NCBI GenBank assembly: GCA_000934665.2
Contig: JYFJ02003559.1
Location: 1-40,336 of the forward strand
Source: Catajapyx aquilonaris
Lineage: Eukaryota
Direction: 5' to 3'
DNA: 40,336 nucleotides
Under the pieces are notes generated by a model. The model saw only the letters and a list, made by a program, of their open reading frames with translations. It did no database searches and was not told where the DNA came from. Shown in pieces: positions 56 to 39,423 of this stretch (positions within the stretch are counted from its first letter, which is position 1; every line of letters starts with the position of its first letter). The position numbers and the translations under genes are program-made.

Positions 56-2920
56 TTACATTATATTTGCAAGCAACATTTTAGCAACGCACATATTCGG
101 AAAACAACCAAATAACAAAATACCAAGGGCACACTTAAATCCTGCAATAAAATCGTAAATAAGCATCAGATTTAAGTCAGCACCTTTTCTGCTTGTTGTT
201 GATCTCAAAGATCTAGTTGCAGGAGGAGAAATCTGGGATTCTGGGTCTATTTTCGTTTCCCTTGATTTTTCCCTTGGCTTCCCTCGGCCACTCCTAGTTA
301 CAGCTTCTGCCTGATCCACACTCAGTTGTTGTGCAGGTTCAGGATCTTGAGCTACACTCAATTGTTGTGTGGGTTCAGGATCTTGATCCACACTCAATTT
401 TTGTGTTGGTTCAGGATCTTGACACACACTGGGTGGTTCAGGGTCTCGAGCGACACTGACGTGTTGGGCCTGTTCAGGTTCTTCATCCACACATTCTTCC
501 TTCACATGAACCTGAATGCCATTATCCAAGTTTATGGTGCTGGAGCCTACATCTGGATTCTTCTCACCCACGTCACTGATGAGTTTTTTCTGGGCCTCCT
601 GAGTGAATTCCAAAAACTCCCACCACATCTGCACCTTCCCATGGCACACGCGACATATTTTTTTTGGAAGGGGATCTTCTTCCCCTATCTGCAACTGAAA
701 ATAGGCATTAGAATAATAATTCAAGAGTAGTACCACTTGTAATGTGTAAGTTCTCACTTGATATTACATTATCCTACCTACAGTCCTTTAACCCCTTCGG
801 CCCCAGATCGGCCCGAACCACACAGTTTTTGGCTTACGCGTACTCCGAAGATACGGACATGATATTTTGCAAATAATAACAGCTATACTTACGAGATCTG
901 GGAAAACCCTATGAATGTGTCTGGAACCATTTTACTCGTCTAGAAGTCCCTAAATTAATTTCCAAAAAAGGGCTATAATAACCCGAAATTGGACTACTGC
1001 CGCCCAACCTTTAGGCTGATTTAATTATGAAATGCGTGAAAATATGCGGAATAGCAACCTTGAGAACCATGCCAGAGGAATTTGCTGAAATCGTCGTGCT
1101 TTGCGAGAAATAAATTAATACCTATTTGCGGCTTTCTGGCACTTCGGAAAACTTCGGAAAACTCCCAAATTTATTTGTTTCTCATGAAGTACGACGATTT
1201 CAGAAAATTCATCTCATACTCATTTAGGAATTTTCCTAAGTGCTAGAAAGCCGCAAATAAATATTAATTTATTTCTCGCAAAGTACGACGATTTCAGCAA
1301 ATTCGTCTGGCATGGTTCTCAAGGTTGCTATTCCGCATATTTTCACGCATTTCATAATCAAATCAGCCTAAAAGTTGGGCGGCAGTAGTCCAATTTCGAG
1401 TTATTATAGCCCTTTTTTGGAAATTAATTTAGGGACTTCTAGACGAGTAAAATGGTTCCAGACACATTCATAGGGTTTTCCCAGATCTCGTAAGTATAGC
1501 TGTTATTATTTGCAAAATATCTTATCCGTATCTTCGGAGTACGCGTAAGCCAAAAACTGTGTGGTTCGGGCCGATCTGGGGCCGAAGGGGTTAAGCATGA
1601 GACAGACATGACGTCACAAGAAAACGTCACTACTACACACTAATCTGAAGCACGTGTGAGGATTCAAAAGACCTGAAATTGGAGGGAAAGTGGTGGTGAT
1701 TCGGAACTTGAGAGGGAGGAAGAGCCGGAATGGAGGTGGGGTGAACTTGACATCATGTCGTTGTCTTGCTTAAAGGACTGTAACTGAGGACTGGGTTCTC
1801 ATGAGATTTTACGATCCTCAAGAATATAAATCCTGCAGAACCACTCCCTCCTGAGCCCTGCTCCCATCTCCTAAAGCCCTGTAACTTTAGGCCATCCACA
1901 ACAAGTATGGACTGGACAAAAAATATGTCTCTGGATGGCATTTGTATTCTACAGTTTGTACAGGTGAAATTCCTACCATTAAATTACAGTAATACCCCAA
2001 TTGTTACTTAGCAAGGCAAGTGGATAATGTAGATCTGGTCCAATGTGCTGATAAACTGGCATTCCCCCTGGCCCTACCAGGATCGTAGGCGTGGAAGAAG
2101 GGGCTTGGCAATCAAAGATGGGGCTGGGGATGTTACTATGCCTATTATACCCAACACCTGCACCTCTGCCTCTGTGCCTCATCCCTTCCTCCTGCACAGT
2201 CGAGTCTGGCAGGGAAAAATATCAGTATATCTGAATGTTCGGCCAGATATAAGTCAGGGGATTGCTGTATTCAATCACAGCTATGCTTCAAGAGCATAGA
2301 GATGTGTGCTGTTTCAAGTCTCAAATGCTCCATATTCAGACCAAACCTGAATCAATGTCTTTAAAATCTAAGATCTTGGCAGGATGAATTTGACCAATTT
2401 TGTCCTAAATGGGGTCTCAGGGACCTTATGTTCAACTTATATATGTTTGCATTATTAGAAGTTGCACTGTACTTTTGCAGTTAGGCAACAGGGAAAATGG
2501 GCCCTTGTCAATAGGGATGTGAGCTAAATTCTGGCACATGCAGTGCAATGATGCGAGGCTTCAAGTACAATGCTTAGCAATTAATTGCATGTCCACCAAT
2601 GAGCTTGTGAGTCCTTATTTATGTTCTATCAAAACTCTGGGAAGATGCTCATTGAAGGTGATGGCTGCCTAGTCCATCCTAACTGGACATACACTGCCTC
2701 TCGTTACGCCTTGGGTTGTCATAGCGAGTGTGTGGCTGGTAGGCATGCTTACAGTGCTGGAGGGGAAGCACTTGTTGATCTTGTCCAGTAGCTCCAGCTC
2801 CTTCCCCTTCTTGCTGAAGACGTGCACCCCGTCTCCGGCATCCTTGGCGCACACCCTGCACAGCCTGGACAGATGCTTTCTTTTCTTGCTGCTGCTGCTG
2901 CTGCGTGTGCCGCTCACCAT
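56..2920 (-). CDS. ZAD (zf-AD) domain protein, N-terminal part. Exon 2920-2753 is spliced to an exon starting at 688; the 3' end is unresolved and probably continues left of the window
   Basis: The phase-0 join ACT|GTAAGC (2752) to TTGCAG|ATA (688) reconstitutes LCRVCAKDAGDGVHVFSKKGKELELLDKINKCFPSST-IGEEDPLPKKICRVCHGKVQMWWEFLEFTQEAQKKL. This is the CxxC...LPxxICxxC pattern of the ZAD domain, followed by an acidic VKEE linker. No C2H2 fingers are seen in the window. The start at 2920 is the nearest in-frame ATG. Confidence 0.85.
312..492 (-). repeat. Coding tandem repeat, about 33 nt (11 aa, QDPEPxQQLSV), roughly 5 degenerate copies in the ZAD linker
   Basis: Recurrent ggttcaggatcttga...acactca units; protein ARDPEPPSV-CQDPEPTQKLSV-DQDPEPTQQLSV-AQDPEPAQQLSV-DQ. 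Confidence 0.9.
781..1780. mobile_element. Older Tc1/mariner-like MITE (about 197 bp once the nested element is removed), TA target duplication
   Basis: TA at 779-780 and 1781-1782, termini CAGT...ACTG. The reconstructed left end tacagtcctttaagcatgagacagacatgacgtca matches the reverse complement of the right end, tacagtcctttaagcaagacaacgacatgatgtca. Confidence 0.7.
792..1590. mobile_element. Non-autonomous piggyBac-like foldback MITE, 799 bp
   Basis: TTAA at 788-791 and 1591-1594, termini CCCCTTCGG...CCGAAGGGG. Near-perfect inverted arms of about 360 bp (792-~1151 vs ~1230-1590) surround a spacer of about 80 bp. No transposase ORF. Confidence 0.92.
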
Positions 2921-3925: not shown

Positions 3926-4518
3926 GCATATGTCGAGCGGATTTGTATGGGTATCAGACAGAAAGACAGATATACGTCGCGAAACTGTATTAGATTAGAT
4001 TAATCACATCTATACTGATGTGTCAAAGAAGATCAGCATTTATATCCACATTGACAATTAAATGAAGAAATTAATGTGACTTGCGATTTTTTAAAATATC
4101 CTTGTCATTTTAAAGACTGTATTGACCCATGAAGAGAGATAGTTTTGGAAACAAGCCGTACGATGCTGTTGTTCATGTTGGCTGTTGCGTCCTGCTGCAG
4201 GTTCTCTGGTTCTGCTCTCTCTCTCTCAGGTTATCTCTGCTGCAGGTTTCCTGCAGTGCTGCCATTAGATTTTCATTCCTGAGATTGTGGTGTCCTCTTA
4301 CGGAAAGATACGGAGTAGCTACGCGAAATCTTCACATCGTCTACTACTCTTATTATGAAACATTTTAACATAATGGAAACGACCAAAATTCCCAGCATTT
4401 GTGACGTACCTTTCCAATAAATACTGTAGAAGTAGACTACGTTTCAGCTATAGTCCACAATACTGTATGCCAGGATATTGAAAGGCTCTAAAAAGCCCCA
4501 GCAGCAACCCTATCACCG

Positions 4519-4598
<80 letters not shown>
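4519..4598. repeat. (ATT)n microsatellite, about 26 units
   Basis: Directly visible perfect trinucleotide tract. Confidence 0.98.
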
Positions 4599-4599
<1 letters not shown>

Positions 4600-5825
4600 A
4601 CACGCTGAGAATAAAGCGCATCCTGTCCAAACATTCCTGCTACATGTTGCCTGGAATGCAGCACGTAAATTGTAACATCGATTATCTCCGTAATGAACAT
4701 GCATTCACGATTCACCAAAAAGCAGGCAGGAAATGCGCAAACCTTTGGCACCACCTTGCAGAATCGTGTATCACTGACTATACCTACAGGTTATTCGTGA
4801 ATAAGGCACAGTTTCCTTATGCCATATCTTTTCCCCAGCATACGTGCTGCAATCTCAGTAGGACAAGTGTGACACCAGAATGACCTAAAACTCTCCACGA
4901 GGTGGGCTGACCAGTTGCACTGTCCATTATCACGGTTAACCTTCCAGAGTATCTGATGAGGCAGAGAAACTCAAAATGGCACTGATGTCAGTAGGTCTAC
5001 ACAGTTTATCAGCCATTTACGAATTAAATACCAAGGCAACTTTCGTGGCACGTTTCTGTGAATCGAATCTTGAAAATAACTTACCAACTCTTATATTGGC
5101 CTTCATTATTCTGTTTCGACATATTAGACTTCACAGGCCGATACACTTGTGGACTGCCTTGAAAATATGGGGCTATGCATTGCTTTTATGATGGTCTCTT
5201 GGACTGAAGAAATTAGGCCTACCTAGAGACTTCATCAAGACAGTGGTTTCCGGTCTTATGATACAGTCGTATGCAAGATAATGCCATTAGAAATGAGGCA
5301 CAAAGCTGGTGCTGGATTAGCAACGTTATACTTGGATTACCATTTAAACGAACGGCACTTGTTGTAATAATTCCTTGCAGGCAAGGAGCAATCTGTGCTA
5401 GATTCCTCCTTCCATTAATGGTGCTGTCCATGCCTCAAACTGGGAAGCCACTTTCCCAAAACCACTCACTCGTTAGTTATCTGCGACATGACCTGACCTA
5501 ACCCATCTGGACTTCTAGTTTACCTGGACCAGATATGCACTTGACCTTATTCTAAATGGCCTTCACAACTACAGCAAAAAAATCAGGGTTAAAGAATATG
5601 GTATATCTATCGGTATACTAGTAAATCATCGTGTAAATCAATAATGCTTCACTTTCAGGAGATTAACTATTCATCATTTTCTTGTAAGACTATAGTAAAT
5701 TTTTTTTCAATCAGTGTAGTGTCCCCAACTTTCATGCTTATTACTGTACATGTTTCTAATAATATATGTACGGTATACTATAATGCCTTACCAACCCACC
5801 GTTCTTCATTACATGATACCTTTAA

Positions 5826-18414: not shown

Positions 18415-21071
18415 ATGAAGACGCATCTGGCGGCTGCCACAGCCGTCCTTTTAACCCTCTTCATACAGGCAAGTCCCCTCTTTTGTCCCATGTCTTTGAG
18501 AAACAATGGGGTTGGCTTTTTTCCATGAAAAGAAAGAAAAGAAGGGCGTGAAATATGATAAAGCATTGTCCGAACTAACTGTAAAAGTTGGTCACCTCAT
18601 GAAGGAATGCGAGCGAGAGCCGAACCTTATGCAAGTCAGCGATGTCTGTCGGAGCTCCTATGCTTCTGGTTGCTGGGAGCGTTCACACGGTGGGCTCCAC
18701 CCCGAATGATGATCATGATTATTCTGGTGACCTACTTCCGCTGCCCCTGGGCGTGTTAAAAGTGCGTACTCACCATCCCCAATCCCCCGTCTCTCCCCTT
18801 ACATGGGCGGCTAATTTCGAGCTCCTTGCCCATCCTCCTCCAGGGCAGGGTAGGTTCCTGTTCTACATTCCGCTTTGTTCCGCCACCGAACGATGGACAT
18901 CCTTACAGAGAAAGAGAGAGGGAGAAAAAATGGCTCATCCACGCCCTTCTTTTTTGACTTCTTTTCATCTGGGATCTGAATTATTATTGCCACCAATCTT
19001 AAGTTTCTTCCTGTATGTATCTCAACTTTCACCAGCAATTGGCGCCTTTTCTAGAAGCAATTAAGGCGCACTGATGACAATGTGCTGAGTCATGACATCC
19101 GCAATTGTCCTTACAGAGGGTTCGAAATGAAGAAGTACCTCCGAGTGGATCGGGTTCATCGAATAACCTGAAGCCAGAGCACAGAGCTGGAGGATTTCCT
19201 TTGCCTCACTATGGTCCTCCACTGCCTATACCTTCTGGCCCGTCGTCGACGGGGTACGGGCCGCCATCGGGAGGAGATGACCTTTGGCCTCTGGGAACTC
19301 CCGACATGCCGCAGATCAAGCATCTGCAGGTTCAGTGCGAGAAAACTCACATGAGGGTCAACATAGAGTTCGATCGTCCGTTCTACGGAATGATCTTTTC
19401 GAAAGGTCATTACAGGTCAGTAGTACCGATGTTGGAGGATTTGCGCTGTTAAATCAGAAGGGTTGTAATTATTTCTCTCTGCAGCGATCCGCACTGTGTG
19501 CATCTACCTCCTGGTACGGGTCACCTCAGTGCCACATTCGACATTTACCTGAACGGTTGCGGGATGACCTCATCGTCCAACCAGCACGGAGCTTACGGAC
19601 AGCCTTCTCCTAGCGGAAGCTTTGTTGAAAATACTATCATCCTGCAATACGATCCTCTTGTCCAGGAAGTGTGGGATCAAGCCAGAAAGCTTAGGTGCAC
19701 GTGGTATGACTTTTATGAAAAGTCTGTCACCTTCAGGCCATTCCAGGTGAGTGTTACCCTACTAATTAGCGAACTCCTCATTTGAAACCCGGCAGCGACT
19801 AATTGCGATTTGTATTAGGTTGATATGCTGAATGCCATCACAGCCAACTTCTTGGGTGACAACCTGCAGTGCTGGATGCAAATTCAGGTGGGCAAGGGCC
19901 CATGGGCATCGGAAGTGTCCGGGATAGTCAAGATCGGTCAGACCATGACCATGGTCCTGGCCATCAAGGACGACGAGAACAAGTTCGATATGCTGGTCCG
20001 CAACTGTGTGGCCCACGACGGAAAGAGAGCTCCGATCCAGCTGGTGGACCAGTACGGGTGTGTCACCAGACCCAAGATCATGTCGAAGTTTCAGAAGATC
20101 AAGAATTTCGGCTCGTCGGCCTCTGTGGTCTCGTACGCCTACTTCCAAGCGTTCAAGTTCCCTGACTCGATGAACGTACACTTCCAGTGCGTGATCCAGG
20201 TGTGCCGGTACCAATGCCCCGAGCCAAAGTGCGGCGGAGGAGGCGGGATCCTTTCAGACGAGTACGGGCCGCCCCAGGGCCACCCGGACCCACGGCACCC
20301 TGCCGGAGCCTACACAGAACCGGTGGCTGAGGGAGTACCGTTGCCCCTCAGCGGGCCCGGTCTGCACAGCGGGCCCGCCCTTAGCGCCAGTGGGGCGCCG
20401 CCTCACCTGCCGCCCCTTCCCCCTCTCAACCAGCCCATCCCTGCTCCTCTCTTGGTCTCCGGAAAACCCGCCTTCATCAAGCTGCCTCAGCAACATGTCC
20501 CCGGAGGTTATCCGGTTAAGCGGGAAGGTGTTGCTCCGGAGGAACCCACCTTCGCAGCTCTCGGGGGACGACCCCGATCCGTCGATGTCGAGGTGTCCGC
20601 CACTACCCTTCGAAGCGCCTCCAAGAATAACCACAGACCAGCGAGGGTAAGTAACCACCACATATAAGTGGACAGTATAACGCCGAAGAGACAACTTACT
20701 AATCATTTCTGCTTCCTCAGAGTGTCAGGGTGTACCGGCGAGAGGCTACGGACATGACGGACATTGAAACCACTCGTGTGATCCAAGTGGTGGCGCCTGG
20801 CGACGTGGCCTTCAGCCTGAATGGTGCCAACGAGACAGTGGTGGTGGAGACCAGCACTAGCTTCGGAGGCGAGGGAGAGAACAGCATCTGCATGACGATA
20901 CCCAGCTTCGTCGGAGGCCTCATCATGCTCTTGCTACTCCTGGTGGTCGCCTGCTTAGTCTCGGCCTTCCTCTTCTTCCGCATCCGGTCCCTGGACCAAA
21001 AGTCTTCCACCACGACGTTCATCCGAGGAGGATACGACAATCCAGAGTTCGTCAAGATGAGCTCCAGCTAG
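18415..21071 (+). CDS. dyl: Dusky-like ZP (zona pellucida)-domain cuticle/apical ECM protein, about 597 aa; exons 18415-18468, 19117-19415, 19485-19746, 19819-20646, 20721-21071
   Basis: Signal peptide MKTHLAAATAVLLTLFIQ; ZP domain PQIKHLQVQCEKTHMRVNIEFDRPFYGMIFSKG...QARKLRCTWYDFYEK...CWMQIQVGKGPWASEVSG...FQAFKFPDSMNVHFQCVIQVCRYQCPEPKC; Pro-rich spacer; basic furin-like site RVYRR; TM helix FVGGLIMLLLLLVVACLVSAFLFF; short tail. All splice phases are consistent (1794 nt). The dusky family is secure; dyl rather than dy is from recall of the family sequences. Confidence 0.93.
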
Positions 21072-22624: not shown

Positions 22625-25600
22625 TCAGTTAGAGGCAGTTGAATATTTTTTGGTCTGGGGATGAGGTACGGAGAATCGAGATGGCGCCTTTGTGCCACCA
22701 CTTTTCTTTCTCTTGTAATCATTGTCTTCTCTGGTGGTACTGGTGGCGTCGTCCTCTTCATCACTCTCCTCGACATCTTCTTCCTCCACAGTAGAGTCGC
22801 GGTGATCATATTTCATTTCCTTCGCCCTCTTTGCGTCTTCATATTTCATCTTAATATTAGCCACTCTGAAAAGAACCTTAAGAGGTTATATCTCCTTGTG
22901 TAAGAGTGTTAGTCCACGACAGTTACCTCCATCGGTAGCAAGCATCCCTCAAGCTGTTGAGCATCAACTGGAAGTTGTGCTGCAGCTGCTTGGGTGCAGG
23001 CGTATAGCTGGATGCAGCCTCGAGGTCCGTGTCTGACTGAGTTTGAGGCATGGGAGGAGCCCCATATCTTTGGCCAACTTTCAGTCGCATGCCCCTTTGG
23101 AAGGCCTCTATCTGCAAAACGACGTTGTCCAGGCGGAGTATCCTGACCGAAATGTAATGGTTCAACTTCAGACACAATGGCTGCAAAGGAGGTGCGTGGA
23201 CGTGCGGGGAAGTTTGGGTCCACTTCCACTTGGTGGTCAGGCCATGGATTGCATCCAGTCGTACACCCTCCCATGGTGTGTATGTCACCCTATACACATG
23301 GCATTAATTACTGCGCAACAATGATCACCTTGGCTACTCACCTGATGTGTCCTTCGTCGTCATAGATGACCCCGTTTCCGTCGTTGGTAAAGATAGCCAG
23401 GACTACCTTCTGCTCCGGTGAATCGCCTGCTTTCAACACGGTGAATTGAAAACCTTCGTATGAAACGGATTGGGTTAGTCGATGTCACATTCCTGGTTCC
23501 AACCTTAAGTGTACCGTACAATACCTTTGTGAAAGGCTGATATAATAACTGCAGGTGAGCCATCTGGATAAAGTACTTCTCCTGTTCCGTTTGAGAAAAA
23601 GGTACTGAAGATCTTATTATCAGGGTAGAAACGATGTCGTATGCCTTCGGCCTTCGAAGGAGCCCTGGACAAGATACGACATAACCAACAACGTGCAGGA
23701 AATGCAACAACAAACTCTTACCATTCAGGTTGCTCTTGAACCAGAAAAGTGGGTTCCTCCTGAGTCTTCAAAAGACCATCCGGGTCAAATGGAAAGTACA
23801 CGGGCTTGTGGCCTGTTTGCAGGTGGTCGGGGATAATGGTATTTCCGGCGAAGGAACCTGCCTTCTTGGGCCCTCCGACTGTAAGTATGGCTGGTTTGAC
23901 CGGCTCTATGGATATTTCCGACATGGCATCGCTCCTCCGCCTGATGCTACCGTCCTGGGCGGTGTAAGTTTCAGAATGCCTCGGTACCGACGGCAGCACC
24001 GTCCAACCCATATTGGCGTATATGCGCTGAGACAGCAGATAGGACAGGGTACCCGGAGTGTCAGCTAAATAGAGAAAGGCATGTTCAAGTGGTACTTACT
24101 GAGACAAGAAATTGACTATTAAATGTGTCATATTCTTACGTTGTCTGCCTCCATTTCTCTTCTATTCGTGTGCAAAGAAAATAGAGAAAAAAATTATTCA
24201 AACTGTCAGACAATAACATACAGTATTATCCTAGCAATAGATCAGCTTATTTATCAACATGCATTCGATTCCATCCCTTGCTGTACTGTGCTGACACATC
24301 AGTTCCAATGCAGCAAGAATGTCTACAGTGCGACAACCACACCGGAGCATTCGCGTTTAGAACAATGAAGATAAGAACCTGCTGCAGTCGAGCAGAATCG
24401 GCTTCGCTGACGATTGCTGACACGTCCACTGATTTTTTGCGACCTTTTGCGCCGGGTACGATAGAAAAGTTGTCCGCCCCGGCCATCAACTCTTTGATTT
24501 TGTCTCATCAACGAGTCACTCCCCTCGGCAGGTTTTTTTCCTTTTATAGTACTAGTTTTGCCTCTTCGATTCATGTTGACAACTAAGCCGACACAACAAT
24601 CAAATTGTTTTCATATAGTTACACTTGGAAACCGACTCACCAATGATGTCACAGACTGTTTTGCCTTCTTTGTGTATTCTATTTCCCACAAAAGGGCGGC
24701 TTGCTTGCAGCAATCAGGCTGAAGCAAAACAAAGACAATTGAATGCATCTGAGCCTTTAAAATAAAATAATTAAATACGGTGTCATCAGTACCTTTCTGT
24801 TCAGATCGTATAATTTACTGCAGAAGGTGCATCTTGCTTTGCCTGCAGGGATCACGTCTCCAAGTTTTCTGCCTCCCTTACTTTTTTTGTTCTTGGGAGG
24901 ATGGAGTTTTTTGATGAACAGTTCTGATGGAAGTGCCTGAAGTGACTTGACCGCGGTGGTTAGAAGCCCAAGACGTGTGAATCTCTCTTCAGGTGTTTCC
25001 GAGGCTGCCGGAGGTTTACTCGTTTCTCGAATGTATCGAAGAAGTTTAGGCATGTCTGCATCAGGCGGTAGCATAGCCGGGGCTCCTTTATTGAAATGTC
25101 CAGCCTTTTCCCAATCTTTGGGGTTACTTATCTGAATTCAAAATCACTCATTAATACTGCCGTGGACTGATGGGTATTTACAGAGTGATGATGGCAACTT
25201 ACATGATAAGTGTCCATCTTATTTAAAAGTACTTCCATACTCTCGGTTTGTTCTTTTAGTGCCTTCTTCACTTTACGACCGGCCTTGGATACGTGGCTAA
25301 TATCCTTTATTCTTCCTACCAAATCGTCAGGGACAGTAGACTTTCTGTGCTTCTTTTCATCTCTTTCTACTATCAAGTCATGAGAACGCCTTTTTTTGGT
25401 TTTAAAGCTGTCAAAATATATAATAAATTTAGCTTAAATTATGAAGCGCGATGGTGCTGTCAGGCGAACTTATGCCTTGAGGCTGAATCATAATTATTTA
25501 ACAATATTATCTGGAAAATTATGTAATACCTGGGTCTCCTGCCTACTTTCTTTCTGGATCGGTCAGAATCGAGGGAATCTTTACGACTGTCGTCGTCATA

Positions 25601-27257
25601 AGTGTCTCTTCGCCTGTTCCCTTTAGGTTTTCGACGCCTGTCATCGTCGTCAGAGTCTCTTCCTCTGTCCCCTTTAGGTTTTCGGCGACTGTCATCGTCG
25701 TCAGAGTCTCTTCCTCTGTCCCCTTTAGGTTTTCGACGCCTGTCATCGTCGTCAGAGTCTCTTCGCCTGCCCTCTTTGGATCGTTGGTAATCCTTTTTCT
25801 CGTCTCGTCTTTGGGTCTGTCTAGAGCTTGGTTTAGAGGAATCTTCATCCCTCGAGTCGGATCTGGCTCTCCGTTTTGATTGAGGACGGAATTCTTTCTC
25901 AGCGTCACTTCCATATGATCTCCTCCTGTGTTTCTTCCGAGCCAGTGAGTCATCGTCACTGTAGCTGTCACGAGATTTTAGGTCCGCATGTTTCTTCCTA
26001 TCGCGATCTTTCTTTCTTACATATATCTCGTTGAGTGTACCGGAGTCGTCTTCTCGAGACCTCTTTCTATCTCGTGCTTTTTTACCACCCTTTTTGTCTT
26101 CACGTCGGCTCTCCTCATCATCCATCATACGAAGAACTTCTTCGCTGACAGACCTAGGAAGTCTCCCGGGAGATTTCTTCATTTTGCGCTTACTTCGTTG
26201 GCCATCTTCATCAATAATTTCGCTAGGCGTCAATGATCCTATTGATGTCCTTCTTCCTTTTCCCTTTACACGCCTACTCCCTTCGTCGCTTTCCTCCTCG
26301 AAGCTTAATCTCCTATCAGACCCCTTTGATCTTGACCCCTTTCTAAGGATAGACTTTCTTGAGGGGAGTTCTCTTCGTGACAAGAGGAACCCTTTCTGCT
26401 GAGCGATAAATTCGGCAAAGAGCTGTTGCTGTGCATTCAGACGGTGCAACCACCCCCATCCGCCCTGTACACCTTTACTCCTCTTGGTTTCGTCCCATGG
26501 AAAAGCTTCATCGACGACATATGACTCGTCTTCTTCTTCTCGCTCCTCCATGGCCAAACGAAGCAGTTCGTGCAAGCTCAAAGGCTGGGCGGGGTCTCCC
26601 CACGCAGCACCCGACTGAAAATCACAACGAAAATGTCAAACCATTTTTCTTGGGCAAGTAATAATGTCGCGTACCTTCTTCTGTATGACAAGAGTCTCCA
26701 GAAATGCGCTCATTACTGGAGTTGGAGGAGGGGCGTAGTCGGGATGAATGTAGACTGGCTCTGACGGCTTCTTCGCCGATGGCATCCGTGGCTCTGTCTG
26801 TGACTCTGATAGGTGCATTCTCTTCTTATTAATGGAATCTTGGAGGGATTCCCATGATGACGCTAATGTTGGCGATGGTACAATTTCAGAGTGGCTTCGG
26901 TGCAGTTAAGTGCCGCAAAAGTCTTCTAGGTTTATTATATTTTCTGAATCTACTCGATGAGCTGAATCGAATGACACTATGTACAGAGCGCGGAAAGTTT
27001 ATTTTCATTTATTCATTGTTATAACTTGCAATTTCAAAATTCAATTACTCTTGCACCAAGCATTTCCCCACTCTAGGAATAGTGTCATTCGACTCAGCTC
27101 ATCGAGTAGATTCAGAAAATATATAGAAACCTGCAAGAATTTTGCAGCACTAAACTGCACCCTTACCTTCAGAGTTTTCTTCCGAGTACTCTAGCACTAC
27201 TTCCAGGTCATTGGAGGAAGCGGTCTGGGTACTTGTAGGGCTCTCCTCTTCGTCCAT
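22625..27257 (-). CDS. ERICH6/FAM194-like protein. Exons 27257-27167, 26838-26675, 26614-25530, 25407-25203, 25131-24793, 24718-24641, (~24490-24379, 5' edge uncertain), 24161-24140, 24064-23722, 23664-23525, 23453-23342, 23289-22927, 22865-22625
   Basis: The spliced C-terminal half reads CTFC...PDCC, TLSYLLSQ...GWT, FYPDNKIFSTFFSNGTGEVLYPDGSPAVII...VLAIFTNDGNGVIYDDEGHIR...KWKW...HAPPLQPLCLKLNHYISVRILRLDNVVL...RLKVG, which follows the FAM194 domain motif order of ERICH6. The N-terminus is long and charged. GT-AG introns have consistent phases except around 24380-24640. AATAAA at 22502-22497. Confidence 0.82.
25585..25770 (-). repeat. Coding tandem repeat, 51 nt (17 aa RDSDDDDRRRKPKGDRG), about 3.7 copies
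   Basis: Near-identical units tgtcatcgtcgtcagagtctcttcctctgtcccctttaggttttcg on the + strand. Confidence 0.92.
26899..27161. mobile_element. MITE (about 263 bp, TIRs about 80 bp) in intron 1 of the ERICH6-like gene; possibly PIF/Harbinger-like
   Basis: ggtgcagttaagtgccgcaaaa...ttttctgaatctactcgatgagctgaatcgaatgacactat (26899-26980) is the inverted match of atagtgtcattcgactcagctcatcgagtagattcagaaaa...gcactaaactgcacc (27079-27161). The right flank is TTA; the left flank is degenerate. Confidence 0.8.
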
Positions 27258-29919: not shown

Positions 29920-32900
29920 GGTTCACTTCCCTGTCAACAAAAAAATTGATTTCACTTTTCAATAAATCACACTGACAGTAATTCACATCACTGGCTGCTC
30001 CTAGTCACCTGCAAAATATTACTATTATAAATGAACAACGACGAGGCTTATGTAAGCTTAGAGTATTGTCTTCGTAGTGTAATTATGAGCTCAATAGGCA
30101 TTGATTGTTCCACAAACTGCGAGTCAAAAGGCCCATATAAGAGGCAGAGAAAGTAAGGCGCCAACCGTTGGAAAGGAGCCTATTTGAAACTGGGACCATC
30201 CCCAGAAAAGTGACGCAATGTTATTAAATTAAAAGGAAGAATGAGAGAAAGTGGCTCACAGGAAAGAGATGCCACCATTTTGGTAACCCTAGTCCACCGG
30301 GCAATATGTTAGAATTATTAGAATTTTTTGAGAGGACAAAAAGTGAACTTGAATTTGGGTCACTACGTAACCGGATCAAAAAAAAGGGAAAATTGCTCCA
30401 TACCTGAAAGGTCTCGTGAAATGTGTTACATGCCATGTTTTTGATTCATGGCACCAACGGACAACGCGTGCTGAGAACTATTTTCAAATAGCAGTTGTAC
30501 CAGTTTGCAAGTAATTTGTTAGTCTCTTTGCAATTGCCGATTACTTCTTAGTTACATGCGATCTAGATCAAGTCACATTATTACAGAACTAATGCGGTTT
30601 GACTCGAACAGGTGACTTGTGCAGGCTGTTGAACCGACCAATTACAACATCCAATTGCCGCAATTTTCGCAAGGACCCAAGGGAGACTCTAGTCTTCCAT
30701 TCCCACCACTTTGAAACAATGAATTGCACAGTGTATCAAGCGACTGTTGCGTAAAAAGAGAGCCCTTTCAATGGTGATGCACCCTTATTCGACCGGTATG
30801 TTCTGCAAGTGATGGCTTCAGGACACTTTTAGCACCTTTCGTGATGTATTGTTACATAAGACGTGGTAATGGCCCACAGGACTTGGGCGTGTTTGCAAAA
30901 CGGGTTTTATTAAGCGGAAAAGCGGCCAATAGAGGGTGCAAAAATTCGTGACAAGGTCGTGCATGCGTTTGTAAAGTGTACTCCAAAATGATGGGATGAA
31001 AAAAAAACAATAGAAAAAAAACAGAAAAAAAATTGTGCCTTCAGGCTTAGCGATTGAGTAAATCAAAATTGCTTCCTGAATGCCCATTGCGTGTTTTGGA
31101 CATTCTTCATCTTGACGGTGACTTGCTACATGTCTCCCCTTAGCTTTTGATCATTACGTCTTTCTCCTCGAGTAGTTAGTGGTGAAATTCAGCCTGCCGG
31201 TAGTCATCAAGTGACATTTGGATGTCTCAACACTGATTCAAAATGCGGACACTGAGGGAAAAAAAGTGGCTAATGAGGCTATTTTTTCCTGAGATGCACG
31301 CACGTGGATTTTCCGCGTTGTATATACTAATGATGGAAAAGACCACAATCACAGTATTTTTTCCTGCCAAGGTTGTGCACGAAAGTTAAGGCGGTTATAA
31401 CCTATTTATGTCATGTCTTTATAGTGTTATTACATTTCTTTTTTTAAAGAGAGACTTTTCTAAAATTGCTGCAATCTACGACGCATTTCAGTCATCTACT
31501 TGTAAGCTCATGAATATAATCCTGCAAATATCAGGATGAGGACATGATCTACTACGCTGTGAGATGAATTTATGATGAACGGAATCCCTGAACCTATTGC
31601 AAACAATTAGTAGAAAAAATTGTTTTCCGTATCTAAACTAGTTTGTTATTTTCACTTGTACGGCAAGGGACGTATTTGCAACAATAAACCTGCTCTGAAG
31701 GCAAACTAGATTTTTGAACTCAACTTTGAGTAAAAGCGGTTATTTGTAAATATGCAAGTTAACCTTGGGATAGGCAAATTAGTACCATCATTATAAACTG
31801 TATCGTTTTTTCACTGATAATAATTTATGTGACTGTATCGAGTATCGCAAACATATTGAGTGAATTCAAAAGTAAATGTGGTAAATCTGCTAAAGTTATC
31901 ATAGCAATAGATCAACTTGCCTATATCCTGAGAACACATTAACCTGAATATAGGTAGTCTACTTAGAAACTAAGTTGCCCGACATGTACTCGAGAATTTC
32001 CTACACCTACAACTTATATCAACACTTTTTTTATTCGTGAAATCAACTAAATCAGCACAAAACAGCACTCTCACCAGGGCAGTGGGTGAAATTATCAGCT
32101 CAATACTACCGGGTAGCATAAAAAGTAGCAAAACAACTGAAACCCGCCGCAGTAAATAAGAAATACCGACTTACCACCCAGCATCCAACTGACACAACCC
32201 CAGAAAAGAAAATGCAAAAAGGCCTTCACCGGCAACTTAAAATTCCATCACACACAACAATGGTCATAATGAACCATTCAATATTCAACAACCTCAGTCC
32301 TTTGTCATTGACAATCAATGCCAAAGGAGGGTTACCTGCCAATATCACCAGAGCCTCGAAATGCACAAACCGTCCTCAAGCTGTACAAGATTCGCACTGT
32401 CAAAAGCGTGGACCGAGACCAAGGTGTCAAAAGTCCATCAACCAAGGCCAAGTCCTTCTGCAGGTTTTCTCAATTGTCCCCCTCCTCACTACCACCAACC
32501 ACACTACCACAACAGCAGCTATTCTTCACTTTTTTGCACCACCTAACTCCTCCCCATTGTGCATGAGTGACGGGGGTTCAAGGATAACAGCCACCTAGAC
32601 CAGTGACGTGTGCACACTCGGTCATAGAACACTGCAACTACTGCCTTACCTACGGCCTGTAACTGAAAGGCAAAGAAAAATCTTCTAAAAAGACTCGGAG
32701 GTTGTGGAGGTGGGGGTGGTTGGGCGTAACATTTTACGTAATAGAGGACTCGCTGGAGTGTGGTGTTGACCAGTCGTAGACCAGGAGGAACCTACCACTT
32801 CCCTCACGAACAGAGCAGATTGCCCACTTTCGCCACGGTGTTGCCAATTTAACACTCTCCTTTTCTGCAGAAATGTACATAAAGGATCTCACCATCAGTA

Positions 32901-34308
32901 TTGTACATTGGGCATCAACGGTAACCTAGGGTATGAGATGGGTTTAGCATGGAGCATGCCAGTAAGGTCTGGAAGGCCGAAGGAGGACCATTGAGGATTG
33001 GATACATGGAAACATGGGAAATGAAACTGAATTGCCGGTACCGGTAGTGGATTTGGTCGCATATCTTCCGCTTTGGCTTGTTATACATGCAAGTAACATA
33101 CATTTAGGAGGAGAGAAAAAACTTGTATACTTTCCCTGCTCAACTGGTCATCTGGAACAGCATAATCGAGGGAAATTATTCGTCATCTCTAATCAGGAAT
33201 AATTATTGTTGGCCTATTTGATATCACGAGCAATCCTATTGTGCATAAAGATCGTTGTGGATTCGGTTGCAAACAGATCATTATATCACGGGCAGTAGTC
33301 TCATATTACTTAAGTATTTGAAATCATCCGAGTGTAACGGCCTCATTTTCGTTACACCAATTTGCATTACTTTAAAAACAAGTGTAACAACATTAGCTCA
33401 TTCTTATTAATATTGTTATTCTCACGGTTTTCTAGGTGTCACACTTATGAGGCCAATTAAGCACTCTATGGACCTGTAGTGCTTTCAAATCTCAATTATT
33501 GACAAATAACTCGATAGTGTTTTTTTGACACATATTTTTCTTGGCATGTGTCACATATCAGTTCGCTTGCATGACCACTTCTTTTGTCAAATATTCCAAC
33601 CGTACGGGTTGGCATACAATATATTTCTTAATAATTTGTGCCGAGAAGGAATGAGTCCAGTCCTAGTATACGTACTGTACGAAAATCGAAATCTCAACAG
33701 CAATTATCCAGTCCCGTCACAGAAACAACGTCGTACAGTACCTGTAGTGATATAACACTGTAGTTCCAAAAGAGAAATTTGACTCTTTTTTTGCACAACA
33801 CCCCATGAAACTGGTTATGAAAAACAACCTGACATCTGATTTGCATTCGTCGTAATCTTGAATGTCAGCTTACTTAGCAAGTAAGGTAATGTATGCTCGG
33901 TTCGATTTCAGGCAGAAAAAAACACATCTCAAAATGCCGATACGCTTGTGAATCCGGTTAATATGTTGTTATGTCAGCCACACCCAAGTCAATTAGCGCT
34001 ATAGGTGTCGAATTATATAATGCCAGTTTACTTAGGAATTAACACAGTAAAGGAAGTTTACGAGTAGGGTTGTAATCCTACTGCGCGATGCAAGGTTGAA
34101 TCATGCACTTGCTGAAATAGTTATCCATTACCCCTTCGTGCTGAGTAGCCCGTTTTCCTTCTAGAATTACGATCAACAAGATTTCCTTGGCGTATGATAC
34201 ACACAAAAACGCGGTAGTCTTATCTATCAATCGCACATTATAAATACATAGCCTCATCCCTATAATGTGTAGCTGTACAAAGTTCAAACCATTCACCATG
34301 GTAGGTTT

Positions 34309-35366
34309 CTACTCATTATACTGTAGAACCAGATTGAAGTGATATATCAACCACATGGCCACATGGGAGCAGATTTGAATAATGTTTCCTTTTACCTGTC
34401 CCAATGCCTGCTCCTTTGCATCCTGTCCCGCCAGTTCCTTGTCCTGTTCTTCTGCTGCCAATACTTGACCAAAGTCCTCCGCATCTGCATCCGTCTCTTG
34501 GTCCTCAGCTTCCTCTGCCTGTTCCTCTGCCGGTTCCTTCTCTGCCTGGCCAATGTCCAAGCAGCTACCATTGCTGGAATTTTCTTCAGCATCATTACAC
34601 TTCCGGACACATCATAAAACTGACATGTTTTTGAGGTCCATCCAGCCATATGCACAGCATTCCAAAACTCGTCCATCCAATTCCTGAATCAAATCCCAAA
34701 ATATAGGCAGGCCATTGTTGTCCCTTATGTGAATATTATAAAGGTCCTGTTTATTATACTGCATATAGTTACTACCTGGACAGAGCGTCAGCACCTCTGA
34801 GATAATGGTCTGTCCTTCTGTGTGTCAAGTGCCAGGTCATGGAAGAGCGACATGTGACCTCCAGCCAATTTATCATGTTATTGGCCAATTTCCCTGATCT
34901 GTGTCCGCTACTCAGGCCATTGTTGTCAGTCAGGAGAACGACCTTTTTCGATAAAAACTTACTCCGCCAGTGATAGAGAGCCCAGGCAGCGTTCATCATT
35001 TCAAAATTAGTGGCATCCGAACCACAGCTGTAAGTGAACGGATGTAGAATAATCAGATGCTGCTATTATGATGAAAGGAATGGGTATCATAATATACTTA
35101 TCTGCTATACGCGAAATGCAGGATGCAAGAAATTTTAAGCGAATTATCACTTTGATTGCCTTTAAAAAATATATTTTGTTGTTGTAGCCACTAAATTACT
35201 TATTACTATACGGAATATCTGCTGACTAGTATGAAACATACCTGTGGGTTTGCGAATAAAATTCGCAGATGACTCTTCCGGAATTCCCTTTGAAAAAGCA
35301 CATGCCTCCGGCTCTATTGCGGGAAGCGTCCACTACTACTGTCACATCATACCGATTGCGGAACAT
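34309..35366 (-). CDS. Stand-alone retrotransposon-type RNase H protein, paralog C, with intact catalytic tetrad; exons 35366-35242, 35027-34776, 34683-34396, probable last exon from 34320
   Basis: Spliced product MFRNRYDVTVVVDASRNRAGGMCFFKGNSGRVICEFYSQTHSCGSDATNFEMMNAAWALYHWRSKFLSKKVVLLTDNNGL...YLRGADALSRNWMDEFWNAV...CQFYDVSGSV. The motifs DAS (D13), E51, TDN (D76) and ADALSR (D122) are those of DIRS/Ty3-type RNase H. Two phase-2 GT-AG introns restore the frame. The frame of the tail is ambiguous (see findings). Confidence 0.8.
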
Positions 35367-35857
35367 ATTTAAGTACAATAAAATGACCGCGGGTAAGTAA
35401 CTTTTTGCATATGTAAATTATGTTTTTAGGCGGAGTAAAAAAAAAGAGTCCATCCACGACCAGATTATTTATTGCAGCAGCTATATACTCTCGGTGCTAA
35501 GTAACACAATCATACAGTATTCTACATAATAATAAGTAGAGTCCTACATTACTGCCTTTGCCCTAATGGTTCAGGGCTTACAATCCTGGGTGATTGATTC
35601 ACCCACGGCTCCCGTGAACCTGCAGCACCTAAGGGTGGGTTTTGGTGCATAATAAATACAGTTTATAGTAGAAGAGTAGATACAGTAAATCCAGAACAAG
35701 TGATTGATAGACTAAGTGTTGCGTATTGTACTTAATGTTGTTGGTGACAATGAATAACAAGGATCAACAATATATTTGTCCTGTGTTCTTGGATTTACTG
35801 TCAGCCACTCAACATCAGCTGTGCATTCATATTCATATTACATGTACTCTTGAAGAA

Positions 35858-36328
35858 CTAATGACCACATGCTTTCACAACGCTTATGTTCTCTGAAATG
35901 TCACTATATGCCTGGTTGTCCATAGTAGGTTGCAGATTGTCCAAGAACCAGAAGAAAATTTGGGAGTTCTTCTTCGGATCTTGTTTCCAAACTGGAAGGC
36001 GGACTGCTGCCTCCAAATACCCAGCACTTGTAGGTTGGGATTTGGACGCAATCGTGATGCTGCAGCGGTACTTCCTCTCTAGAAACGTCTTCGTTGGCTC
36101 CTTCACGTCATCTGCGGCGTAAACAGTGACGCACCGACCTTTGACATGTCTGCGCCAGAAGTGGATCGCTGTTGACAGGTTGTCCAATAGGTCCATGGCA
36201 TTGCCCAGTTGTTTGCTGTGGTAAAACTCGCAATAACGAGTGTCCTGGCTTTGGTAAACGCAATACCCTCCTGCAAAACTGCCTTTTATGGCAATCCCAA
36301 CTGCCACATCTTCCACTATCTGAAACAT
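35858..36328 (-). CDS. RNase H-fold paralog B, 156 aa, intronless CDS, catalytic residues lost
   Basis: Colinear with paralogs A and C: MF start, AGGYCVY, CEFY, N..TAIHFWR, VTVY, YLEAA, YSDISENI. The aligned catalytic positions are A/L/A/V. AATAAA at 35473-35468. Confidence 0.72.
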   Translation of the reverse strand: MFQIVEDVAVGIAIKGSFAGGYCVYQSQDTRYCEFYHSKQLGNAMDLLDNLSTAIHFWRRHVKGRCVTVYAADDVKEPTKTFLERKYRCSITIASKSQPTSAGYLEAAVRLPVWKQDPKKNSQIFFWFLDNLQPTMDNQAYSDISENISVVKACGH

Positions 36329-36539
36329 GCTGCTACTTGCACAAATTCTCTACGACAACTAAAGTCGATGTTGATCAATCCACCTGGAAAAGCAATGATT
36401 TAAAGTGTAGCTTTTAACTCGATTAAATTGCAGAAATCAGTCTCGGGAGAATCGAGGTAAATAAAAAATACACGCAACACAGCTTGCATTCGGAATTGTT
36501 TTATTGACCACAGTTATATTGGTCAAGGCCAGTTTTAAA

Positions 36540-37172
36540 TTAAGATTTGCAAGATGTGAACCCGTAAATGATGAGAACCAGGATAAGAAGTAGGCCTAAA
36601 GCAATGGCAGCGATGCACAACTTCCTCCTCAGTGCCCTCCAGGTTTGATATGACCCCCTGACGTCAACGCTATCAGACACATCTCGAAACTTGCATTCTG
36701 GCAGGACCTTCTCCACAGCCGAATAAAAGTGATACATATTCTGACTGTGGCCAGCATCTCCACGTGACAATTGCTTGATGGCCACCAGATATGGGTTGTC
36801 TGAAGGTGTTGTCCGGAGATCTATGACGCAGGCAAAGTTTTCTTGTGCTTCCAAACTAGCCCTGAACCTTCGTAGTTCTCGAGCCGATGGATTCAGAATG
36901 GACATAAGCCCTTGGGAGTCGCTGAGAAGAACCATCTGGGTCTTCTCCTTGGCCGCCATAATCGGCCGCCAATGTCGAAGTGCAACAATCGCATTTCCGG
37001 TCTGATGTTCCAGAGGATCTTCAGACAGAAGTTGATGGCTCTTGTGGTAGAATTCGCAATGGGACGCACCGCGATGGTGGTAGACACAAAGGGCAGCCAG
37101 ACACTCCCTGGTGCTGTCAACCGCTATGGTGACTTCATACTGATCATCTTCACCAAGTTCTCTGCAAAACAT
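36540..37172 (-). CDS. RNase H-fold paralog A, 210 aa, intronless CDS, with a C-terminal transmembrane anchor
   Basis: YEVTIAVDS, CEFY, NAIVALRHWR, MVLLSDSQGL, YLVAIKQLSR and CKFRDVSDSV align to paralog C. The tetrad reads D/Q/D/K. It ends RALRRK-LCIAAIALGLLLILVLIIYGF-TSCKS. AATAAA at 36505-36500. Confidence 0.8.
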   Translation of the reverse strand: MFCRELGEDDQYEVTIAVDSTRECLAALCVYHHRGASHCEFYHKSHQLLSEDPLEHQTGNAIVALRHWRPIMAAKEKTQMVLLSDSQGLMSILNPSARELRRFRASLEAQENFACVIDLRTTPSDNPYLVAIKQLSRGDAGHSQNMYHFYSAVEKVLPECKFRDVSDSVDVRGSYQTWRALRRKLCIAAIALGLLLILVLIIYGFTSCKS

Positions 37173-39423
37173 AGCTGCTCAAGAAGTGCGCAATGGTAAG
37201 CTATACGTCACTGCCAGACTTAGCACGCAAAATGTTATTGTGACGTGATAAGTAAGCGGAAAAAAATCTCACGGTGTATTACACACATGATTGTGTACAT
37301 ATGCAGAGTTTTGCTAATTTTCCTGACACACATTAATACTTACGAACTTTTATCACTCTCGGCACTATGATTTCCGCCTATGGAAACCAACAAATTGCTG
37401 TCGTCCGACATGACCAACTCTGCCTCTCTGCCTGTCATCGAGTACCTTATCGCTATCACCATAGAAATATTATCTAATCTTAATCCCAGGTTCGTTACCC
37501 TGCAAAAGTACATATAGCCAGTAATAATACGTTACAACCATTGCGCCAAATTTGCTCCTATCCCTCAAATTACAATTAATCATTAAAAGAAGGTCATACC
37601 AACCTGCCTTGGCCAAGTCGTTGAAAAGTCATCAGTCAGGATTGGTTAGGTTAGTTTTTTTGTAATTTTTTTTTTTCAAAAATAGTGAAACTCATAGTGG
37701 GGCATATCTTTCACCGCAAAACAGGTGCCGCTTGTGTTGGGTGAACTCAAAAAGGGTAGTTGAGACTTCCCCAATCGATATGGGGCCTGTCACCCCTGGA
37801 ATATTTTGTTGCCCCCTCCATCCCCCTATACTCCCCACTTTCCACCCGCGCAGGTTGCTGCTCCATGCGATTAATAATTTTCCAGTCGGCTGCTGCGTCT
37901 GATTCTACCCTGTACATACCCTGGTGTAGCTCCAGTTACTATATACGCCCCTGCCATTTGTACAAAGGATCAATAACGTTGCGGGCTTTTCATCTGAAAG
38001 TGCAGCATGCGGCATATTTTCCACGCTGTAATGACAGTTGAGAGAGGGGGAAAAAATTGTGGGAAAATGCGTTTTCACAGCGGAAAAGGAGGCCATTTCT
38101 TATAACGAATATTTTTTAAAAAAACTGGATGCAAATTGTAATTGCAAACGTTCGGACGTGCCTTGACTTTTCGTTTCCGTCTTTTGTACGCGACGGGATG
38201 CCTTAATTAACGGGTTGCGTTGTATTCTAATATCGACTTACTTTTAGCCCTTGGACTGGTCTATAGTCTTGTAACACACGCAGGGGTTGTGTCATTCGGA
38301 CCTTTTATTTTATTCCTTTCTATTATTACATTTTGCAAAATATGCAATTACTTGCCCAATACTTTTTTAATATGCTTTTCTCTTATCACGGAAAAGTAGG
38401 AGCCCTAATTTGCAATAACGTATTCAAAGCTATTGTTGAGAAATATTATGCAATGTGACTTTAAGATCGGTTTTATTTTAATTTACCATTACTTGTTGCA
38501 GCGTATACAATGTATGAATACCTGTAATTCAGTTTGGTCATAATCTTCGACAATCGAGTCACGCGATGTGATTGTTAGAGAATTGAATCTAGCATTTTCC
38601 CGTAAGTGAGAATATGTTATAAATATCTCAAGGGGATTACTTATAAAGATATACTTTACACTCACAAAGTATACGCGTCAAGGACTACCCTACATGTCCG
38701 ATCGGATCAGTTCGTGCAAAAATGTATGAGTGATAATGATCCTGAGCAGTCAGGACATGATCCCTTTAAAAAGGGTGCAGCAGGTGATGCCTTGATCACG
38801 TAACGGATCAATGTGGCAGCCAACCAGCAAGCAAGGCTTATTCGTGTCATGAATGCTGCGGAGTTGTCGCCGCGCTGCTTATTAAATGTTTCATAATGTA
38901 CGGCTGGGTGTATAGCCTCACTTTTATGACCTGGGAGGAAGGGAAATGGGGTGCAATGAGGGTGAAGGGTGGAAAAAAGGAGTAAGCGCACTCGGCGCTC
39001 CATCAATAACAATAACAAGAGGAATAATTATGATGGTCGATAGCATCGTCGCGTAGTGATCCATCGAGGATCGTCCGTCGCTGGAAGCTGTGAAACGGAG
39101 GCTGGCTCCTGGCTGGAACCTCTGGAAGCAAGCTGTGCGGGGGCTGCAGGCGAAGGTGGTTCAAGGTACGCACGCCCACACGCTTGCTGCTGACCCTGCC
39201 ATGGAGCCTGCCAGCTGAGGGGACACTCCGGGATGTGGCCTCCTGCTCTCCCTTCCCGCTTGTCCAGGTCATGTGCGGTTCCAGGCCGACCATGAGTGGG
39301 GCTAAGAAGAAGCGGAAGGGAGGGCAGCAGAAGCAGTGAAGAGGATTCAGGGAGGGAAATGTTGGCCAAGGACCACCACACCTGAAGACAGCAATCGTGG
39401 TCCCAATAGGAGAAGGAGGGAGG

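Follow-up and report, generated by a model that had tools for sequence, protein, structure and literature searches.

A tandem family with a retroelement-type RNase H domain in Catajapyx aquilonaris, a candidate case of retroelement domestication

Can the RNase H domain of a retroelement be taken up as a host gene by itself, and would it keep its catalytic residues there? The question is raised by a 40,336-nucleotide (nt) stretch of Catajapyx aquilonaris contig JYFJ02003559.1 (the window; guanine-plus-cytosine (GC) content ~39-52% across its length), which holds an RNase H-like coding region, copy C, beside two related frames, paralogs A and B. The explanation that we favour, at slightly less than an even chance, is that A, B and C form a small lineage-restricted tandem family of host genes on the minus strand (34.4-37.4 kb) derived from an RNase H of long terminal repeat (LTR) or DIRS type, and that copy C has real introns and is under constraint.

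The anatomy of copy C was read directly from the minus strand and then recomputed from window coordinates. The exon and intron boundaries proposed by the first-pass annotation (Table 1) held on recomputation: the joined frame was open for 222 codons up to a TAA at 34394-34392, both junctions were in phase 2, and the residues of the catalytic tetrad, D13, E51, D76 and D122, fell at exactly the positions claimed for them. The range originally given for copy C, 34683-35366, needs correction, as it omits exon 3, which is located below 34683. The lengths of the two predicted introns are 1 and 2 modulo 3; because neither is a multiple of three, the unspliced frame is broken and no protein would be made without splicing. 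Read unspliced, the exon 1 frame met a stop 5 codons into intron 1 and the exon 2 frame met a TAG right at the donor, and each exon frame ended 0-13 codons beyond the predicted splice sites. Both interruptions ended exactly where homology to paralog A resumes, with an extended donor consensus (CAG/GTATGT) and a pyrimidine-rich acceptor (TTACAG). A 19-nt inverted repeat (35362-35380 and 35724-35742, 84% complementary, arms 343 nt apart) has one arm over the copy C ATG; this weak repeat may be due to chance.

Table 1. Positions of the features of the A-B-C locus and of other genes in the window (a slash marks an exon-intron junction).
Feature	Positions	Strand	Description
Paralog A upstream coding exon	37344-37411	-	last 12 nt present in the X5 contig; ATG at 37411 presumed
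Paralog A intron	37162-37343	-	182 nt; GTAAGT...TTTTGCAG; joined out in one X5 contig
Paralog A main exon to stop	36540-37161	-	RNase H-like core with D/Q/D/K, common extension, C-terminal hydrophobic helix
Paralog B	35861-36325	-	uninterrupted 155-codon frame
Copy C exon 1	35242-35366	-	125 nt; ATG start, ...CACAG end; first RNase H-like core strands; VVVDAS with D13; GC 0.48
Copy C predicted intron 1	35028-35241	-	214 nt; CAG/GTATGT...TTACAG/C; phase 2; GC 0.32; stops in 3 of 3 frames
Copy C exon 2	34776-35027	-	252 nt; ...TCCAG end; helix with E51, LLTDNN strand with D76, GADALSR with D122; GC 0.48
Copy C predicted intron 2	34684-34775	-	92 nt; CAG/GTAGTA...ATTCAG/G; phase 2; GC 0.34
Copy C exon 3	34590-34683	-	family-specific extension after the RNase H core (FWNAV...CQFYDVSGSV), common to A and B; colinear alignment; GC 0.43
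Copy C tail, frame of the first-pass annotation	34392-34589	-	65 residues, 25 K/R and 2 D/E; low-complexity DNA; TAA at 34392-34394
zf-AD-like exon	59-763	-	26.7 bits, just under the cut-off
Cuticlin-type ZP-domain gene	19096-21068	+	ZP-C E 1.3e-10, CUT_C E 2.8e-8; ordinary host gene
FAM194 exon	22926-23303	-	E 2.8e-16; ordinary host gene

To place copy C among its relatives, A, B and C were each compared with the window by tblastn, which found three copies only (A, 36543-37172; B, 35861-36325; C, 34392-35366), all on the minus strand and in tandem. Joined C aligned with A in a single alignment that spanned both junctions (C residues 4-155; 31% identity over 161 residues; E 2.6e-12 within the window), with lengths that differed by one residue at junction 1 and by a few at junction 2. 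The exon 3 match to paralog A that had been offered in favour of the splicing (CQFYDVSGSV and CKFRDVSDSV) was borne out, as it lies inside this same alignment. A and B were 21% identical to each other (E about 5e-5), and the copies overall 21-31% identical. A CEFY motif upstream of the first C intron site was common to all three copies, as was the extension after the core, which reads C.F.DVS.SV in A and C. Piecewise alignments of the catalytic columns gave D, E, D and D for copy C, D, Q, D and K for paralog A (two of the four lost) and I, a gap, D and V for paralog B (one of the four kept).

When the 471-nt joined core was shuffled by mononucleotide, none of 5000 shuffles was open. The exons had a higher GC content than the two introns (Table 1) and than the 200-nt flanks (0.34 and 0.37), and the GC content at third codon positions (GC3) was 0.54 in the copy C core, 0.51 in paralog A and 0.54 in paralog B. 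As C is highly diverged from its paralogs, a contrast in GC and GC3 between its exons and the introns and flanks would be hard to keep under long neutrality. That copy C is a live, spliced gene appears a little more probable than the opposite.

The identity of the domain was examined by profile scans, Atlas neighbours and motif comparison. Copy C was scanned against Pfam as separate exon peptides and not as the whole spliced domain. The exon-2 peptide, scored alone, matched RT_RNaseH (PF17917) with an E-value of 3.3e-4 and 21.2 bits over profile positions 50-100 of 105, which cover E51 and D76, and this was the only RNase H-type match among the 138 open reading frames (ORFs) of 75 residues or more in the window. 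Neither RNase_H (PF00075) nor the hybrid-binding domain was matched by the pieces of C, by A, by B or by P0002 (a relative of A described below) with a threshold of E 10, or by any of the 138 ORFs with a threshold of E 0.01. The Atlas neighbours of exon 2 were clusters at 0.93, 0.92 and 0.91 that shared 170-178 features with it (scores rated as leads); their members included RVT_3 (15%), RT_RNaseH (10%) and 'DNA polymerase (viral) C-terminal domain', with Pao retrotransposon names lower down. The first-pass annotation had called the domain retroelement-type, as distinct from cellular RNase H1, and had noted that it carries no N-terminal hybrid-binding domain. Both statements agree with these results, the former through the sole Pfam family, the Atlas retroelement clusters and the motifs described next.

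The first carboxylate of copy C stands in VVVDAS (residues 10-15) and the last in GADALSR (residues 120-126). In the consulted parts of a study of crustacean elements, 'LTTDAS' and 'ADALSR' are conserved Gypsy motifs of the reverse transcriptase (RT) and RNase H used for primers (PMC3587641), and ADALSR appears as an RNase H motif of DIRS1-like elements in the consulted text of PMC2685390. The DIRS1-like rows drawn from the supplementary alignment of the latter show TDAS..GWG, D-N at the third carboxylate and the ending H..G..N..AD.LSR. As far as these sources go, C resembles the DIRS1-like and Gypsy RNase H in the order and spacing of D-E-D-D, in DAS at the first D and in GADALSR at the last D, and it shares D-N at the third carboxylate with the DIRS1-like rows but has its H one residue further from the D. 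The combination of DAS, D-N and ADALSR, compared by eye, makes copy C lean to the DIRS type among candidate clades that include DIRS/Ngaro, Ty3 and Bel-Pao. Overall, the retroelement-type RNase H identity of copy C is moderately supported by its sequence, and a retroelement origin of the domain is likely.

The best-supported member of the family is paralog A, and not copy C. Four DNA sequencing runs (X1-X4) contain the stretch and may be where it came from. A fifth run, X5, whose kind is unstated, contains 13% of the sampled window words and was compared with 33500-37800; among the runs sharing sampled window words, none was recorded as RNA. X5 yielded one 490-nt contig, which consists of 36684-37161 and 12 extra letters. 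The reverse complement of these 12 letters is unique in the window, where it occupies 37344-37355 (minus strand) directly before GTAAGT (0.01 such placements expected by chance), and position 37161 comes right after TTTTGCAG. The contig therefore joins the upstream exon of A to its main exon across a 182-nt GT..AG intron, from which we infer that X5 is RNA-derived. Paralog A is transcribed and spliced as a host gene, on the evidence of this one transcript-like contig. The contig consists of paralog A only and gives no cover on B or C, so that it is uninformative for either. The description of A as uninterrupted in the first-pass annotation was correct in that A is free of the two introns of copy C, but not in general, since it has its own spliceosomal intron further upstream, the one joined out in the X5 contig.

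The joined frame of A has 229 open codons if translation begins at ATG 37411, a presumed start with further in-frame ATGs upstream, and an AATAAA (36500-36505) lies about 35 nt past its stop. The C-terminus of A carries a strongly hydrophobic stretch of 19 residues (Kyte-Doolittle mean 3.13), which is absent from B and C and is predicted to resemble a tail anchor.

No family of RT, integrase, gag, protease or recombinase was matched by any of the 138 window ORFs (Pfam, E up to 0.01), and copy C stands alone among host genes, apart from other retroelement genes in the 40-kb window. Relatives outside the window were few. Among 1.84 billion proteins, a whole-library HMMER search with A returned 2 with an E-value no higher than 0.001. 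One (P0002, 107 residues) is 82% identical to A residues 8-113 and is a fragment of a close relative. The other (P0003, 356 residues) consists of tandem repeats of ~52 residues, each like A residues 47-75 (45% identity, E 1.4e-4), and may be a repeat array or a chance match; it is probably not meaningful. No orthologue of copy C was found. Word searches with the exon-2 peptide gave 11 candidates among longer proteins, none of which reached E 0.01 or even E 10, and no candidate among proteins of near length. Metagenome scans for copy C returned nothing. Two candidates from these searches were rejected: a viral-contig locus, which matched the search pattern AWALYHWR by chance in unrelated sequence, and a metagenome contig from the scan with P0002, which has 68% GC and a 17-residue chance match.

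In the sequence of events that we propose, a retroelement of LTR or DIRS type would have supplied the RNase H domain from which a host family arose, and this family would later have gained the C-terminal extension and spliceosomal introns. C would be the only copy with all four metal-binding carboxylates, its two GT..AG interruptions being read as introns and the copy as under constraint. If expressed, its protein would have from ~126 to 222 residues and would consist of the RNase H core (exons 1 and 2), the common extension and a very basic tail. The likeliest mechanism would be two-metal-ion cleavage of the RNA strand in RNA:DNA hybrids by D13, E51, D76 and D122, and the basic tail would help in nucleic-acid binding. 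For copy C, transcription and splicing, constraint, fold and activity are all inferred. The same holds for its portrayal as long-domesticated and probably active in the first-pass annotation; judged from sequence, we put the likelihood that C is catalytically active at about one in three. A wider proposal, that an arthropod-like lineage domesticated RNase H alone from a DIRS- or Ty3-type retroelement into a small tandem family that evolves fast, with C competent and intron-bearing and the other copies pseudo-enzymes (A being tail-anchored), all of which together could restrict retroelement or viral RNA:DNA hybrids, seems to us quite unlikely.

Several results weigh against the identification of the domain and against the favoured account of the family as a whole. 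The RT_RNaseH match of 21.2 bits is under the curated cut-off of 24.8, the exon-1 peptide alone gave no Pfam match, and paralogs A and B, as well as P0002, matched no Pfam family. An AF2 model of paralog A from a 5-row alignment was of low confidence (mean predicted local distance difference test 55, predicted template modelling score 0.38); its order of elements, strand, long helix, strand, helices, strand and helix, is compatible with RNase H. Compared with the PDB by Foldseek, this model found nothing at or below E 0.001, and the scattered entries of RNase H-like fold in rows at E 0.02-0.3 were not taken as evidence. The VIA wide structure search with the same model gave no significant match (best Z 5.6, most rows covering the terminal helix only). 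Against PDB sequences, the family profile gave one chance row (E 1.5) and the exon-2 peptide no match. A two-chain prediction with the exon-1 and exon-2 peptides, meant to show whether they form one domain, spoke neither for nor against it (score 0.12, mark 0.34). Finally, a single close fragment of A among 1.84 billion proteins argues against an old, widespread gene.

Two other origins can be set against this background. The three copies could be plain remnants of retroelement insertions and not host genes, as the domain is of retroelement type and such fragments are common in animal genomes. We regard this as very unlikely, given that the 138 ORFs of the window hold no RT, integrase, gag, protease or recombinase, that the copies are same-strand tandem units with a common extension after the core, that A has a spliced upstream exon and an AATAAA past its stop, and that the exon-2 word searches gave no retroelement polyprotein. 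A diverged gene of the cellular RNase H1 type, or another member of the RNase H-like superfamily of non-retroelement origin, would fit the spacing of the tetrad, which suits RNase H generally, and the Atlas match of A, a plant RVT_3/RNase_H cluster at only 0.77. This appears the most improbable origin, as RT_RNaseH was the sole match where RNase_H and the hybrid-binding domain gave none on the pieces, and as the ADALSR and DAS motifs are present.

Copy C could be a silent or decaying duplicate beside a working gene A, with insertions that happen to have GT..AG ends for interruptions and a tetrad not yet eroded; we consider this possible, though doubtful. The transcript evidence is for A only. 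A and B lack both of the C introns in the tblastn alignment, and so either C acquired them or A and B lost them. The neighbourhood of the junctions (+-24 nt) allows 30 GT..AG pairings, 4 of which leave the frame open, so that pairs of this kind are not rare there; the choice of the first-pass annotation had the best-looking splice consensus, judged by eye. An exact repeat of 15 nt (81% over 26 nt) links 34708-34733 in intron 2 with 34913-34938 in exon 2, the stretch that codes for the third carboxylate; by our own estimate, ~0.01 matches of this kind would be expected over 4.3 kb. A duplication or insertion would leave such a scar, and the repeat may preserve a sign of the event that created the interruption. 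The ends of C also depart from those of A. The acceptor of A reads ...ATGTTTTGCAG/ (TTTTGCAG), B reads ATGTTTCAG there (a similar TTTCAG) and C reads ATGTTCCGCAA (CCGCAA); without an AG at this position C could not be spliced there, so its 5' end differs from that of the verified copy A, and it may start at its ATG, which is intronic in the transcript of A. An impression by eye of a decayed copy of A exon 1 upstream of C was withdrawn after the upstream DNA of A, B and C was aligned and the scores were compared with those of shuffles, which they did not exceed. At the other end, the next same-strand AATAAA past the stop at 34392 is 2.3 kb on (32030-32035), so that no polyadenylation signal is near the C stop, and another AATAAA (34750-34755, minus strand) lies inside predicted intron 2, 20 nt past the in-frame TAG at the exon-2 donor. 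The 3' end may accordingly differ from the one drawn in Table 1, and a short product ending in ADALSR is possible. The tail region (34392-34611) is open in two frames, the very basic one of the first-pass annotation and an acidic one that ends CAG/GTAAAA; its DNA is of low complexity with a 12-nt period, and the codon-position GC in the former frame is odd (0.35, 0.51, 0.77). The 5' and 3' ends of copy C, including the frame of the tail, are thus uncertain. A decaying duplicate is nevertheless at odds with three exon blocks that are all open in the frames required by homology, as no shuffle was, with retroelement motifs that are better kept in C than in A or B despite 21-31% identity, with exon GC and GC3 well above the surrounding DNA, and with interruptions bounded exactly where homology to A resumes and by extended splice consensus. 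Alternatively, copy C could be expressed without being a nuclease, in a family that binds nucleic acid or protein as pseudo-enzymes and in which the tetrad is an ancestral leftover; in a variant, the short form ending in ADALSR would be produced through the AATAAA of intron 2. This is unlikely in our view. It draws on the family's tolerance of catalytic-residue loss, which also counts against the favoured account: Q and K stand in place of two catalytic residues in A, the expressed copy, and three are gone from B. The in-frame TAG and AATAAA right after exon 2 would serve the variant, and certain retroviral RNase H domains show little activity when separated from the remainder of RT. However, homology to A and B persists in exon 3, and C has kept four carboxylates and their DAS, TDN and ADALSR context where its paralogs have lost them, as purifying selection on catalysis would give.

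The other genes of the window are listed in Table 1. In addition, a 391-codon open frame (25463-26635, minus strand) is rich in R, S, D and K, contains repeated RRKPKGDRGRDSDDDD-like units and matched no Pfam family. A long TAT/ATA microsatellite (4482-4880) gives poly-Y or poly-I readings in the lists of ORFs. No Rfam family was found in the window.

An expressed and active copy C would show, in compact and natural form, how a retroelement nuclease can become an enzyme of the host, and its position beside paralogs that have lost catalysis would provide a convenient set of enzyme and pseudo-enzymes for asking why the domain was kept. If it is silent, the locus would still be a clear example of a retroelement domain that gained exons, introns and, in copy A, a membrane anchor. 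Full-text literature searches, which returned mostly listings and abstracts and are not proof of absence, found no description of a stand-alone host gene from a retroelement RNase H, and the consulted parts of PMC5603734 and PMC12599619 added nothing on RNase H domestication.

Compared with the RNase H of retroelements, copy C differs in that it is joined to neither RT nor another part of pol, in its predicted introns, in an extension that is not of retroelement type and in a Pfam score under the cut-off. Compared with cellular RNase H1, it has a comparable tetrad spacing and the same chemistry would be expected, but, as scanned in pieces, it carries no hybrid-binding domain or RNase_H match, and its motifs are of retroelement type. 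A further comparison is with domesticated retroelement genes. In the consulted portion of one account (PMC3670739), gag, envelope, integrase and protease are the retroelement parts that became host genes, RNase H being unlisted there; exonisation and the de novo gain of promoters and untranslated regions are described for domesticated genes, and many of them have lost catalytic residues. To the extent of that account, the A-B-C family is similar in its single isolated domain among host genes, in its introns, in the transcription and upstream exon of A and in the loss of catalysis in some copies. It differs in that the domain is an RNase H and in that the family appears to be confined to one lineage and to evolve quickly instead of being conserved. 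The A-B-C locus is a plausible fresh form of retroelement domestication.

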